Program-made: the position numbers
Virus record (IMG/VR): IMGVR_UViG_2703718861_000013
Direction: 5' to 3' (one strand)
Length of the DNA: 64,000 bases
From: a virus
Taxonomy: Duplodnaviria; Heunggongvirae; Uroviricota; Caudoviricetes
Shown here: positions 33,001 to 42,000 of the stretch, piece by piece
Layout: every line of letters begins with the position of its first letter
How positions within the stretch are numbered: position 1 is the first letter of the stretch

Positions 33001-36000
33001 GTAGAGGCATAAACTGGCAGTGGGCTTATCACTTCATCTTTTTCCAGTTCCCAGGTACGGGCAATTTCCGCCAGCTTGCTGGAATAAATTTCAATCTTAC
33101 CGGAAGGTGTTTTAAGTGGATTTGCCTCGGGGTCGTCACGAAATGCTTTGTAGGCGACAAAATGACCATTGGGATCTTTACGCTTATAGATACCCATTTT
33201 TTTCAGTTCGTCGTAAGACGGTAACGCCGGATCTTTGGCAAGCATTTTGGCGTACAGATGTTGTAACCATTGTTCCTGCGTGCGACCTTCAGTGAACTTT
33301 TGATAGACGTCAGGTCCAAGACGTTTCGCGACTTCACTCAGGATCCAGTAAATCGGTTTGCGTTCGAATTTTTCGCTGGTGACAGGCTGGAGGAAAATGA
33401 GATATCCCATGTTACCGGCGTAGTCGTTAGGAATAATATCTTCCTGCTCAACGGTCATCAGGTCTGGCAGCAGAATGTCGGCATATTTTGCCGATGAGGT
33501 CATAAAGTTTTCGATGACCACAATCATTTCGCATTTCGATTCGTCCTGCAGAATTTCATGCGTTTTGTTGATGTCAGAATGCTGATTAACGAGGGTATTT
33601 CCCGCGTAGTTCCAGATGGACTCCATTGTCAGACGGATGGATGGACTTGAAGTAGTTGACTCAATGCTACTTAAGGTCCTGATATGACTGACATTAACCA
33701 TGATAATACTGTATATCCATCCAGTTCTTTCTCTGGGTCTCCCTATCTGTATCAGCAAGTCTGCACCTCAAGTCCTGACACAAGGCTGACACAAATCAAT
33801 CTACTCAGCGTAGCTAAGCCTCAGTTAGTCCGTAGAGCCAATGGTCGATATACTATCCGCTTCAGACTCAAGGGACAGACCATCCCGTTTCTTTCAGTAT
33901 CGACCCGAAGCACAGACAGGAGAGTAGCCACAATGCGTCAGAGAGAGCTTGCAGCCACAGCTAAGTCCTTCATGTTGGATAGGCCTGATGTCTCGCTACA
34001 GGAGCTTACGGACCACCTCCGGTCTATGGCTGAGCAGTTCCTGACAGACGCCAGTGATGACTACTGGAATGGACTTGAGGTCGCTACTCTGGTGGACGAG
34101 AAGTCCAACCTGAAGGAGCTAGCCGCTACGCAAGCCTTGAGTCTGGACCAGCAGAAGGGCATAAGGTTAGCGCTTGAAGTCCTGACCGCAGCACAGCAGA
34201 GGGTAGACACTGGTGATGCCTCTGGTCTGATTAAGCTGATTGATGATAATAACCATACTGATTACTCAACTATAGGCGACTCTACGTCAATTCTGAAGAA
34301 TGAGCAGGGGGATAGACCAGCAGTTTTCACACAGGAGCGTCAGCCATCTGTGGTTTTTTCAAGCCTAGTGTCCTCGCTGCTGGCTGAGAAGGTCCAGACC
34401 CTGAAGTCCTCCAGCTACAAGGACCTGTCGTCCTCACTGAATACCGTCTCTCGGTTCTTACCTGAAGACATGGACCTGATGTCCCGCTCTGAGTGGCTGG
34501 CTGTCAGGGACTCCATGCTGGCTGCTGAGGTGAGACCATCGACAATCAACAAGCTGCTGACTAAGGCGAAGATGTGTCTTGATTATGGCCTGATGAATGG
34601 GCAACTTGAGGGCCGCAACCCTATTGAACGGATGAAGCTGACCAAGGATATCGACTCCAAGCGCAGAGCGTTCACAGACGAGGAGCTGGAGAGACTTCTG
34701 GTCCGTGTTGAGTCTGAGTATCAGTTCACACGACACACGGCTCACACGACCTCTGAGGCCCGTAGATGGGCGTCTCTGGTGTCTGTGGTCACTGGCGCGA
34801 GGTCTGCTGAAGTCTGCCACCTGACTAAACGTGACATTGTCACCTTAGACAACGGTTTAACCTGCATCGACATCAATGAAGATGGGGACGGTAAGTCTGT
34901 GAAGAACAAACATTCAGTCCGACTTGTACCGCTGACCGATGGGGCCTGTGGGTTCGACCTGAAGTCCTTCCTTGAATGGGTAGACACGCAGCCTGACGAC
35001 GGCGGTCCTCTCTTCGGGATGACTCCGAGCGCCTACTCTAGCTGGTTTAACTCTAGGGTCCTGACTGAGGCACTGGGAGACGCTGAGAACGTTTCTCTCC
35101 ATAGTCTGAGGCATTGGCTGGCGACCCGAATGAAAGAGCGTGGAGTCAATCTGGTGGACGCTCAGGGCATCTTAGGCCATAGCAGTCAGTCAATTACGTA
35201 TGACCTGTACGGGAAAGGACACGCTGTTGGTAGGCTGGCTGAGGTGCTGAAGACAGCTTTACTTTAAGTAGGAAGACCCAAGGTGGAGACCATATACGGC
35301 TTGATGGTTGAGACCTTGGGTCACTGAAGTCTGACTGAAGTTAGGGAGGGTGATAATAATCATAATCCCTCCTGACTATAGGCCCACTGGTTCGCCTTCG
35401 GCTGTCAGACTCTAAGTCTGTATGTGGTCTTATTTAAACTGGTTCCCTAACTCCAGTACTCCAAATTCCTATGGTCTCCTCTTGACATTCCTGTTTAACT
35501 GTGAGTCGCCTCTGGTCTCTCTTTATATATACTTCCTTAATTCCTGAGGCGTCTTTAGTCCTTGACATCCAGTCCAGCCTGTGAGTCACATCCTGTCGCG
35601 CTACTGTATGCATCACCAGTGATGGACTTGATTATCACTATAGGGGAACCAACTAATTCAACTACAGGAGATACTCTATGGCACGACCAATCGCAACTCA
35701 CGACAACACGTTCACCAAAGCCTACTTGCAGCAGCACTGCGGGGACCTGCTGTCATTCGATGGTCAGGGCGACCTGAGTGGTTGGCTGGATGATGTCCTT
35801 ACTGGTGCTGGTCGCCTGAACGAATCAATGGCAAGCAATACCAAGCCTGTCAGCCCATACTTGATTCTGACCCAACTACTAACGCACGACACATTAACTG
35901 TAAGCGCTGTACAGGAGTCCCTGAGCCGTAAGCGTGTTGCCTTGGGTGAACCTATGGTTTCAACTCGCTACGCTCGCTACGTCTATGCTACCGTCGTCAG

Positions 36001-39000: not shown

Positions 39001-42000
39001 CTATCGTCGATATGCTGGGAACAGACATCGCCTACTACAACGGTGAAGACAAGGGTGTATTCATGCTGGCTAAACGCTTCACGGCTCTGAGCTTCGGTTG
39101 CTTCCGTCACGATGGCGAGAATATTACGGTCGTCCTTTCACGTGATGGCGACTCTCAGTCCCACGACTTGGAAATCCTCGGTAAAGTGTTCGTTGTCGCT
39201 GAAGCTGCTACGACCATCAAGATGGGCACTGGCTCAGCTACTGCCGTCCTGCCTGTAGTCAAACGCCTGAAGTTCACCAAGACCGAAGCGTAAGACCAAT
39301 GGGTAAGAGCATTAGTAAAGGCTTCAGGTCCATCGCCAAGGGCCTGACAGGTGGTGGTGGGACTCAAGGTGGGGCTTCGGTCCCGCCTCCTGTAGCTCCT
39401 CCTGTAGCTCCTCCAGATGACGCTCAGCAAGCTGTAGTCGATACCCAAGGTCAGGAGACCGAGGGAGGTAAGACCATGAGCAGAGGTAAGTCTGGACTGA
39501 ATATCAGCAGGACTTCAGGTGGTGGCCTGTCACTGTGATTAAGACATCTATACAGCCTGTGGAGGGTGGACGATATCAAGCAACAATCTGGATGACACGC
39601 AGAGTCTATAAGCGGCTATGCTGGTCACTGGCTGAAGCTGAACAGTGGGTGAGACGTAAAGTGCCTACCGTTCAATCGTTCCAATCATCATGATAACTAT
39701 GGTCTGGACCAATGGTCTGGACCTTTGTTTTGTACTAGTTATCTAGTGCAGTAGTACAATAGACGAAGGAGGCTTTATGTCTATGACTTCCGCAGACCTA
39801 AGGTCCCTCCTGACTCTGGTCTATAAACTCGTGTTCCTCTCTGTGGGTCTCTATATGGTCCTCTCCGGTCGACTCGGTGTGAATGTATTCGACACTCTGT
39901 CTAAGGCTGTGGGTGGGCTTCTGGGGGCTTAGGTTTGGACTCACAGTGGGACCGATGGTTTCTGACAGAAAAATGTGAATGACCATCTAATACATTAAGC
40001 CAGCAGACTTCCCCCATAGCCCGCCTCAAGTCCAGACCGAGGCCACCGGGGGGCTGACCAGCCGTCTAGACATCCCGTCTAATGACACAAGGCTGACACA
40101 AAGCCTGACACAAAGTCCTTGACTCAATGCAGGACCTCAGGCCTACTAAGGGTCCGCTTCAAGTCCTTGAAGTTCCAGATGAACTTAATGGGCACATCCA
40201 GTTTATCTTTGCCGCGGACGCCGTCGCGGATTGCCGTCATTTGCGGACCATGATCGATAGCATCTGTCCAGCTGAAGCAGGAGATTGACATTTTGACCGG
40301 ATTATCCAGCACCGGCAGGCGTTCTATGGTAATGGTATAGGTCGATTCACGCGCGCCACTATTTCCGCCGCTGATGCCGACATTGCCCGTCAAAATAGGT
40401 AACATAGCAATAGCGCGTGCAGTCAGTTCGCCGTTTGCCTGGCGTTGCGGCCCCCAGCCCTGGCAGATATAAGCGGGTTTTGCTGTGCCAATTTCACGCG
40501 CCAGTTTGATGATACGGTCTACCGGGATACCGGTAATTTGCGAAGCCCACTGCGGCGTTTTCGCTGTGTTATCATCACCTTCACCAAGAATATAGGCTTT
40601 ATAGTGACTATTTTTGGGTGCATCTGCGGGTAAGGTTTTTTCGTCATAGCCGACGCAGTATTTATCGAGAAAAGGTTGATCAACGAGATTTTCGTTAATC
40701 AATACCCAGGCAATACCCGCAACCAGCGCGGCATCGGTGCCCGGGCGAATAGGGAGCCATTCATCTTCACGACCAGCAGCCGTATCGGTATATCGCGGAT
40801 CGATAGCAATCATTTTGGCGTTCGATTTCTCGCGCGCTTTTTCAAGAAGATAAGTGATGCCACCGCCGCTCATGCGGGTTTCTGCCGGGTTGTTACCAAA
40901 CATCACGACCAGCTTGCTGTTTTCAATATCCGTGGTGCTGTTGCCATCATTACTGCCGTAGGTGTAGGGCATGGCACAGGAAATTTGCGCGGTGCTGTAG
41001 GAGCCATACTGATTGAGTGAACCGCCGTAGCAGTTCATCAGGCGTTTGACCGCCGAGGCTGATGGCGAAGAGCGGGTCATATTGCCGCCAACGATCCCCG
41101 AAGAGTACTGAATATATACAGCCTCATTGCCATATTGTTCGACGGTTTTCTTCAGGCTACTGGCGATAGTATCCAGGGCTTCATCCCAGCTAATCCGTTC
41201 GAATTTGCCTTCGCCGCGTTTGCCCACGCGTTTCATTGGGTAATTCAAGCGATCGGGATGATTAATACGCCGACGGATGGATCGACCACGCAAACAGGCG
41301 CGTACTTGATGATTGCCATACTCGTCGCTGCCGGTGTTGTCAGTTTCCACCCAGGTGACTTCATTATCTTTAACATGTAGACGAAGTGCACAGCGGCTAC
41401 CACAGTTGACGGAACAGGCACCCCAGATCACTTTTTCGCTGGCCTGTTGTACCGCTGCCGCTGCACTGCGCAGGGTGAACGGTAAAGAAAAACCGCCTGC
41501 AGCCAGCGCCAGAGAACCTATCGCGGTTGATTTAACGAGTGTTCTGCGGCTGATGCCCACCATTCGGTCATTTTTGGACATAACTCACTCCCTGTTCTTT
41601 ATCGTTATATAAATGTTTATATATTGAATATTTAGCGCGCTAACAATAGAGGGAGTCTACCCATTTTGGGTTAAGAATTATTAATCCATATCAATAGAAG
41701 GGTATGAGTAATAAGGTGGGATTATGTTGTATGTTCAAATCGCCGGATGTGTCGTATCCGGCGTTCAGTCGATAATGTATTACTGCGGTTCGGCAGGCGC
41801 GCCATCCTGGGTAGACTGCGCGGGAGCAGAGACGTTACCGCTGGTGGTGCGGGTATAGAGAATTTTATGCGTATCATTAGCGCAATGGCCGACGACCTGG
41901 GAATCAGGCTGATCAACCTGGTCATTGGGTACAATACTTAACGTGAAGCTGCTTTCGGGTACGCCATTATTGATAATGCGCTGTGATATATCGCTCTGTA

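Follow-up and report, generated by a model that had tools for sequence, protein, structure and literature searches.

The window analysed here is a 64,000-nucleotide stretch of DNA (IMG/VR record IMGVR_UViG_2703718861_000013), in which a small island with an integrase gene and promoters of the T7-phage type interrupts the gene ynfE. A preliminary description had proposed this island as a candidate satellite of T7-like phages. The island measures 6,563 bp between the starts of two copies of an 11-bp direct repeat, AGTTCCAGATG (Table 1). When the ynfE flanks were rejoined with one copy of the repeat, a single minus-strand open reading frame (ORF) of 2,427 nt was obtained, 808 codons plus the stop, which bears out the precise insertion described before. 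Occupied and empty sites, whose comparison had been suggested, were both found among 5,426 complete Escherichia coli genomes: the reconstructed empty junction was uninterrupted in 5,116 of them, in some at 100% identity, and split in ∼165. In the TIGER software paper, which deals with precise mapping, ynfE is listed among the genes interrupted by integrative elements. The paralogue ynfF (30108-32534) is intact and lies directly downstream of the split ynfE (32592-41581); it may buffer the lost ynfE function during integration of the island.

The integrase translation shows the motifs GARSAE and HSLRH and a Tyr-containing stretch, ITYDLY. Repeats are found inside both island ends, and the TTGACTCAATGC pair among them is conserved in the related loci L049, L050 and L097. 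The island is precisely integrated, with an intact recombination apparatus. All nine of its ORFs lie on the plus strand with the lengths listed before, and Pfam agreed with the earlier naming of the integrase and the KilA-N protein. The labels "SAP-like" for the 55-aa product and "AP2-like" for the 52-aa product were dropped, as Pfam, PHROG and NCBIfam gave no support for them. Scans of the island proteins against these three collections yielded no match to a portal, terminase, tail or polymerase protein, and PADLOC gave no defence-model match except that of a KilA-N fragment to candidate PDC-S22.

Table 1. Features of the island in ynfE, with positions in the window unless a related locus is named.
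Feature	Position	Strand	Evidence or remark
attL core, direct repeat AGTTCCAGATG, part of ynfE	33608-33618		AGTTCCAGATG also bounds relatives L050 and L098
12-mer TTGACTCAATGC, candidate recombinase or accessory-factor site	33656-33667	+	second copy at 40119-40130, near attR
int, tyrosine integrase, 527 aa as longest ORF (true start may be downstream)	33684-35267	+	Pfam Phage_integrase 1.8e-13; phrog_1 3.3e-42
Arm-type repeat TGACACAAGGCTGACACAAA, 20 nt	33776-33795	+	identical copy at 40083-40102
Long hairpin directly after int stop codon	35275-35322	+	RNA fold -25.9 kcal/mol, z -4.1
P1, T7-group promoter ACTTGATTATCACTATAGGGGAA, predicted +1 at 35643	35626-35648	+	off Kayfunavirus consensus at -13 and -11
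orf122, first gene behind P1	35678-36046	+	phrog_23123 1.1e-8
P2, perfect Kayfunavirus (EcoDS1-type) promoter CCTAAACTATCACTATAGGGAGA, predicted +1 at 36072	36055-36077	+	consensus match
Non-coding leader behind P2	36078-36706	+	direct repeats, palindromes, conserved block 36591-36701
KilA-N domain DNA-binding protein, 252 aa	36707-37465	+	Pfam KilA-N 1.3e-9
orf55, small protein	37467-37634	+	tblastn 54-100% identity in every island examined; no family match
Structured leader upstream of orf163	37635-37730	+	82-100% conserved family-wide; fold z -4.0, long hairpin
orf163, DUF6971-family coiled-coil protein	37731-38222	+	hhalign 93%, E 2.5e-7, to DUF6971 protein of L133
orf328, HK97-fold capsid protein homologue	38307-39293	+	predicted structure
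orf79, homologue of T7-group virion protein gp7.3 (host range/adsorption)	39299-39538	+	phrog_1320 1.8e-11
orf52, small basic protein; start overlaps orf79 stop	39535-39693	+	100% conserved in L049, L050 and L098; no family match
Hairpin and T-run, terminator-like, end of capsid operon	39701-39733	+	3' half kept right after capsid gene in tRNA-Gly subtype
orf51, small hydrophobic protein	39777-39932	+	conserved in ynfE-type relatives
Conserved block near right end	39953-40038	+	74-79% conserved across integrase subtypes
Right-arm repeats, in the order TGACACAAGGCTGACACAAA, GCCTGACACAAA, TTGACTCAATGC	40083-40130	+	repeat analysis
attR core, direct repeat AGTTCCAGATG	40171-40181		second copy of attL repeat
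Tandem dual-class promoter pairs, EcoDS1 type (..CTATCACTATAGG) and GW1 type (..ACCCTCACTATAGG)	L098 5458-6060; L105 5475-6095; L099 5428-5480; L051 3296-3350		

Phage-type promoters on the coding strand

The 64-kb window has exactly two copies of the motif CACTATAGG (35636 and 36065), each on the plus strand and inside the island. The two T7-group promoters described earlier, named P1 and P2 here, were thus recovered, and there is indeed no RNA polymerase (RNAP) gene in the island; the largest cargo ORF has 328 aa and none is big enough for an RNAP. P2 fits the consensus of eleven annotated EcoDS1 promoters at 23/23 positions and, in that alignment, is identical to EcoDS1 phi10 at 22 of 23; an exact match of 25 nt to phi10 was also recorded for the site. 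IMG/VR matches to a 16-mer around P2 fall almost only on 39-41-kb T7-like contigs, with 17 of which the island has 25 identical bases in common at this site. The phages with a P2-like site belong to Kayfunavirus (CR44b, ST31, EcoDS1, CLB_P1 and others). L050 and L097 have an identical P1 variant, and L049 agrees with it at -13 and -11 but shows small flank differences. The P1-type motif GATTATCACTATAGG was rejected as a marker of a phage group, its matches being mostly chance, and two sites with one mismatch in CACTATAGG (34268 and 35374) were not counted as promoters. Sigma-70-like sites are not enriched in the island.

Across 16 loci (291 kb, both strands) we counted 43 CACTATAG[GA] sites, every one of which lies within an island, upstream of the cargo and on the strand of the genes; the flanks and the opposite strand have none. 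Rough arithmetic for such a 9-mer, in which one position is two-fold degenerate, gives a chance expectation of ∼4 in 2 x 291 kb. Every relative has kept its coding-strand promoters, including places where the neighbouring DNA can no longer be aligned. Their class varies with the island lineage and includes EcoDS1-type, GW1-type and, in distant islands, CACTAATGGGAGA or GACTATAGAG types. Many relatives carry tandem promoter pairs 26-33 bp apart in which two specificities are combined, one member being of the EcoDS1 type (..AACTATCACTATAGG) and the other of the type of Cronobacter phage GW1 (..AACCCTCACTATAGG); this suggests that one island can answer to two helper lineages. Distant islands (30-35% identity in the capsid-fold protein described below; L133, 6480-8386; L131, 7751-7806 and 11463-11482) are without CACTATAGG. 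Repeated motifs resembling promoters of other single-subunit RNAPs are seen in them, with six copies of AATTAAC.CCCACTAATGGGAGAC in one and repeated TAAACCCCGACTATAGAGAG in another.

Predicted capsid fold, its partner and the remaining features

The preliminary description had found no packaging genes in the island. This statement has to be corrected for three products: orf328 with its predicted HK97 fold, its DUF6971 partner orf163, and the 79-aa product formerly called "Gly/Pro-rich", which is a gp7.3 homologue. AlphaFold2, run on a 37-sequence alignment, gave an orf328 model with a predicted local distance difference test score (pLDDT) of 82.3 and a predicted template modelling score (pTM) of 0.77, and the HK97 fold (N-arm, E-loop, spine helix, and P and A domains) was recognised. 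As judged by this predicted structure, orf328 is an HK97-fold capsid protein homologue. It had no sequence match in Pfam, PHROG, NCBIfam, PADLOC or PDB, and an exhaustive HMMER search found 64 relatives, the lowest at ∼22% identity. No homologue was present among 50,697 phage records, from which a distant relative, P0075, is likewise absent at the protein level.

A DUF6971 protein is always encoded directly upstream of the capsid gene, and the capsid-fold gene is always so paired. The protein orf163 is homologous to the uncharacterised PDB entry 5EUR (E 3e-8), which is the solved structure of a DUF6971 member, and is a candidate scaffold or size determinant. It has no similarity to the scaffold gp9 or the core protein gp14 of the presumed helper phages, and for the latter reason a weak Pfam T7_gp14 match (0.013) was discarded. 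Some orf163 homologues bear the RefSeq name "peptidase M16 family protein" (e.g., L052 8298-8789, WP_000898380.1), a name for which Pfam and NCBIfam gave no support. The ratio of nonsynonymous to synonymous substitution rates (dN/dS) was 0.09-0.21 for orf328 in the closer comparisons and 0.44 against its most distant relative, and 0.09-0.32 for orf163; by these sequence comparisons purifying selection acts on both the capsid-like gene and its partner.

The third product, orf79, is 39% identical to EcoDS1 gp7.3 over the full length (pairwise E 4e-14), with both termini conserved, and it is the only product that the island shares with EcoDS1. In the 4,845-bp contig L128 (Logan SRR31214835), P0075, a 27%-identical orf328 homologue, stands inside a T7-like structural block (373-4742). 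In that block a Gp10A-like major head protein is followed by ORFs of 69 aa and 124 aa (the latter weakly DUF6971-like), then by P0075, a holin and a T7 tail fibre represented by its N-terminal part. This contig may come from a phage or a larger satellite that has both a T7-type capsid gene and an island-type capsid module.

Among the other cargo genes, orf122 has no homologue in T7-like phages. Its weak homologues (22-32% identity) were confined to phages 75-90 kb long from Cronobacter, Salmonella, Escherichia and Aeromonas (GAP52, 7-11, ECO319P1) and to an Aeromonas phage of 47 kb. The regulator slot is exchangeable, being filled by KilA-N, Rha or AP2 proteins in different island copies. An excision or DNA-binding role of orf55 is only a guess.

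The repeat and palindrome region reported earlier was found again downstream of P2, in the non-coding leader. Two 44-nt direct repeats (36336-36379 and 36532-36575; 95% identical, 196 bp apart) each hold the nested palindromes AACCC-N7-GGGTT and GTTAA-N5-TTAAC, and they flank a perfect 14-nt palindrome, CCGGAAATTTCCGG (36404-36417), and CCAAATTTGG. The repeats and palindromes of 36336-36575 may serve the exchangeable regulator as operators, or they may form an origin or a packaging site. A 100-aa ORF in the leader (36166-36468) was not kept, as it had no family support in Pfam or PHROG. Three non-coding blocks are common to the subtypes of the family (36591-36701, 37635-37730 and 39953-40038). 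The hairpin of the second block has five pairs with compensatory changes and is a candidate RNase III-type processing hairpin. No Rfam family was found in the island at E≤1.

Prevalence, relatives and size

DNA related to the island was found in 313 of the 5,426 E. coli genomes (∼6%), always in the chromosome and with at most three copies per genome; two or three family members were seen together in some genomes. Among the carriers, E. coli UMNK88 (NC_017641) and A14 (CP028760) have islands that are ∼97% identical. Five further genera carry relatives (Shigella, Leclercia, Citrobacter, Enterobacter and Buttiauxella). Proteins of the Leclercia, Citrobacter and Shigella copies are 94-100% identical to those of the window copy, and such near-identity across genera implies recent horizontal spread without conjugation genes. 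The orf163-orf328 pair is the most conserved part of the family in E. coli. A second subtype, whose integrase is 30% identical, occupies a tRNA-Gly gene that neighbours actS and the remnant ETT2 cluster for type III secretion (L051, L052 and L053), and a DUF4145 protein replaces orf122 in it, as in O26:H11 strain 11368 (L051). Islands with distant capsid homologues (44, 35 and 30% identity) lie at other sites in the layout integrase, small ORFs, DUF6971-like gene, capsid gene. The same compact gene order was present in every related island examined (∼20 loci), with capsid identity down to 30%, and the family uses at least three integration sites.

Without insertion sequence (IS) elements, the islands measure 6,563, 6,782 and 6,764 bp in the ynfE type, 6,371, 6,327 and 6,447 bp in the tRNA-Gly type, and 6,495 bp in a relative of 35% capsid identity at another site. 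The IS-free size range is therefore 6.3-6.8 kb across three attachment (att) sites and capsid identities down to 35%. The IS elements seen in islands were IS66/ISCro1, IS3/IS1203, IS21/IS100 and IS4 (H3, H5, H7, H21-H23, H50, H51, H54 and H58; L049, L051, L052, L097 and L129).

Interpretation and comparison with known systems

We consider it probable that the island lives as a satellite on virulent T7-like phages and brings a capsid protein of its own. The persistence of coding-strand promoters in every relative, even without alignable flanks, strengthens this reading. As in satellites generally, only a partial gene set is present (capsid fold, DUF6971 protein and gp7.3 homologue). From the preliminary proposal of a satellite of T7-like phages, the integrase island, the genuine promoters and the lack of an RNAP gene are retained, and the absence of morphogenesis genes is given up. 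The island would remain largely silent in the chromosome until a phage of the Kayfunavirus type (K1F/EcoDS1/CR44b/ST31 group) makes its single-subunit RNAP. The helper RNAP would then fire P1 and P2 and transcribe one co-directional block, comprising orf122, the KilA-N gene, orf55, the DUF6971 gene, the capsid gene, the gp7.3 homologue, orf52 and orf51. The integrase would presumably excise the island, which the helper replisome could copy after priming at the phage promoters, in the manner of the primary origin of T7. The island capsid protein and its DUF6971 partner might build or remodel shells around the helper portal and core, helper terminase and tail would complete the particles, and the island would be transferred, probably at the expense of the helper.

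The narrow size range fits a packaging constraint, and by a rough estimate a T=3 shell with a T7-type core holds ∼6-7 kb. We tentatively propose, as a rather doubtful elaboration, that a miniature shell of the HK97-fold protein and DUF6971 is assembled on the portal, core and tail of the helper and sized for 6.3-6.8 kb, with the helper RNAP as the switch and the promoter pairs setting the helper range. Alternatively, a helper-sized head would be filled by six island copies (39.4 kb by calculation, close to the length of a helper genome), much as T7 heads take up concatemers of plasmids.

Several observations weigh against a satellite. Host DNA is broken down quickly by T7-like phages, so that the time for a rescue is short. 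The island encodes no portal, terminase, replication initiator or recognisable excisionase. No sequence similarity of the orf328 profile to helper gp10/gp10A was detected, which leaves the co-assembly with the helper portal and core hypothetical. No similarity to helper terminal repeats or to a concatemer junction was detected in the island; a packaging signal was therefore not identified, nor was an origin, and the earlier suggestion that the 630-bp region behind P2 is a replication or packaging site gained no direct support. The public data searched contained no excised circle, concatemer or packaged form. The excised junction, earlier named as a thing to look for, was sought as an attP 20-mer; it is absent from IMG/VR, and two JGI metagenome matches proved to be chance ones in unrelated genes. 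Logan/ENA contigs of 6.4-7.3 kb with the capsid gene were considered as excised genomes and rejected, being chromosomal fragments or host-flanked islands with no terminal overlap; island-only contigs retain host flanks. The capsid gene occurs in only three IMG/VR contigs, whose isolate origin is read from their identifiers (not beginning with 33000) and is unstated in the search output. Many island copies are interrupted by IS elements, sometimes in the integrase or capsid gene, and a sizeable share of the copies is therefore probably inactive.

The main rival, which is not exclusive of the satellite reading, is an anti-phage defence island. Its promoters would serve purely to sense an infection, and dominant-negative decoys of helper head and tail assembly would be provided by the capsid-fold protein, the DUF6971 protein and the gp7.3 homologue. 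The clone would thereby be protected, and the island would spread by other means. The cargo does stand behind phage-type promoters only, and it includes homologues of helper virion parts (capsid fold and gp7.3) with no portal or terminase; the failure to find a packaged form in the public data searched agrees with this too. Known satellites also interfere with their helpers, so the two readings overlap. PADLOC, however, matched no defence model beyond the KilA-N fragment, and defence alone does not explain the constancy of size at 6.3-6.8 kb across lineages and att sites. It also leaves unexplained the near-identical copies across genera and the full att/int apparatus with its arm repeats. Defence as the explanation of the island seems unlikely to us.

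The preliminary description had set its proposal against the same DNA being a remnant, left by internal deletion, of a complete temperate T7-like prophage, decaying and without function. T7-type promoters together with an integrase do resemble integrase-bearing T7-like phages, and IS insertions are frequent. But no RNAP, replisome, portal, terminase or tail genes are present, blastn of the island against the 50,697 phage records gave no DNA match, and orf328 and P0075 are missing there as proteins. No larger relative with RNAP or replisome genes was found among the annotated E. coli matches. The same compact order recurs in ∼20 loci at three or more att sites, in a family that reaches 313 E. 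coli genomes and five other genera. Since this architecture is conserved, the capsid-like gene and its partner evolve under purifying selection and phage DNA matches are lacking, we hold that the island is not a decayed T7-like prophage and rate that origin as very improbable. An encapsulin-like compartment or other non-viral shell, with the promoters as incidental relics, is scarcely credible, because compact HK97 folds routinely match encapsulins, no cargo enzyme lies beside the gene, which is linked to a gp7.3 homologue, and strand-specific, lineage-matched phage promoters are kept family-wide.

The T7 group comprises textbook virulent phages that are candidates for phage therapy, and current satellite catalogues contain no satellite of them. 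Should the island prove to be a parasite of K1F-group phages, phage susceptibility would have a common determinant that has gone unrecognised, strictly lytic phages would be driving a route of gene transfer, and nature would offer an example of gene expression tied to a foreign RNAP. If a miniature shell for 6.3-6.8 kb is confirmed, no other tailed dsDNA particle would have a genome nearly as small.

Our literature searches for satellites of T7-like phages found nothing, and neither the SatelliteFinder census (2023) nor a 2024 review mentions these islands. Features of P4-like satellites (Sid/Psu/Delta, alpha primase-helicase, cos site) and of classical phage-inducible chromosomal islands (PICIs; master repressor, primase/rep module, the small terminase TerS or capsid-redirection genes) had no match in Pfam, PHROG or NCBIfam. 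The capsid fold invites comparison with capsid-forming PICIs (cf-PICIs). Elements such as EcCI2 are reportedly about twice as long, carry portal, protease, head-tail adaptors and small terminase, have temperate helpers and use host-type regulation of induction. In contrast, portal, protease, adaptors and small terminase were not detected in the present island (Pfam, PHROG and NCBIfam), and its expression, as judged from its promoters, would depend on a phage RNAP. Ccm of SaPIbov5, Sid of P4 and TcaP of the PICI-like elements (PLEs) co-assemble with the helper major capsid protein, whereas no sequence similarity of the island protein to gp10 could be detected.

To our knowledge, phage-RNAP promoters are used neither by PLEs nor by PICMIs (phage-inducible chromosomal minimalist islands). 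The likeness of both to the ynfE island is that of small islands answering to a virulent helper. PICMIs are described as minimal, packaged as concatemers, from Vibrionaceae and without capsid-remodelling genes (PMC10803314); PLEs are specific to Vibrio cholerae and phage ICP1. For a helper-primed replication of the island, T7 itself offers the comparison. Replication of T7 is said to be primed at tandem phage promoters in the primary origin (work attributed to Saito, Tabor and Richardson, 1980), and plasmids with a T7 origin and a concatemer junction are reportedly packaged as concatemers of about genome length (attributed to Chung and Hinkle, 1990). In the island, unlike these plasmids, neither a helper concatemer junction nor an AT-rich origin segment was recognised.

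The closest likeness is to the tandem T7-like promoter islands that Chen and Schneider described in 2006. They reportedly found 12 islands of 4-13 kb in nine enteropathogens, each with a tyrosine integrase upstream of tandem T7-like promoters (two or three), with repeats at its ends and without an RNAP gene, and are said to have proposed induction by T7-like phages while leaving the cargo without a function. The island in ynfE resembles the islands so reported in its size of a few kb, its enterobacterial host, the integrase upstream of at least two T7-group promoters on one strand, the lack of an RNAP, the terminal repeats (11 bp here) and its small number of phage-like ORFs. Both the type of island and its core idea had thus been published already, contrary to the earlier view that no such family had been described. 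We found no functional study among the papers citing Chen and Schneider (Nucleic Acids Res 2006, 34:1133; doi 10.1093/nar/gkj511), and the family, known since then, has apparently never been functionally tested. New, as it appears, are the capsid-fold protein with its link to DUF6971, the gp7.3 homologue, the assignment of helpers to Kayfunavirus subgroups, promoter pairs of dual specificity, the constraint on size and the figures for prevalence. The capsid-fold gene, in particular, turns an old bioinformatic curiosity into a testable hypothesis.

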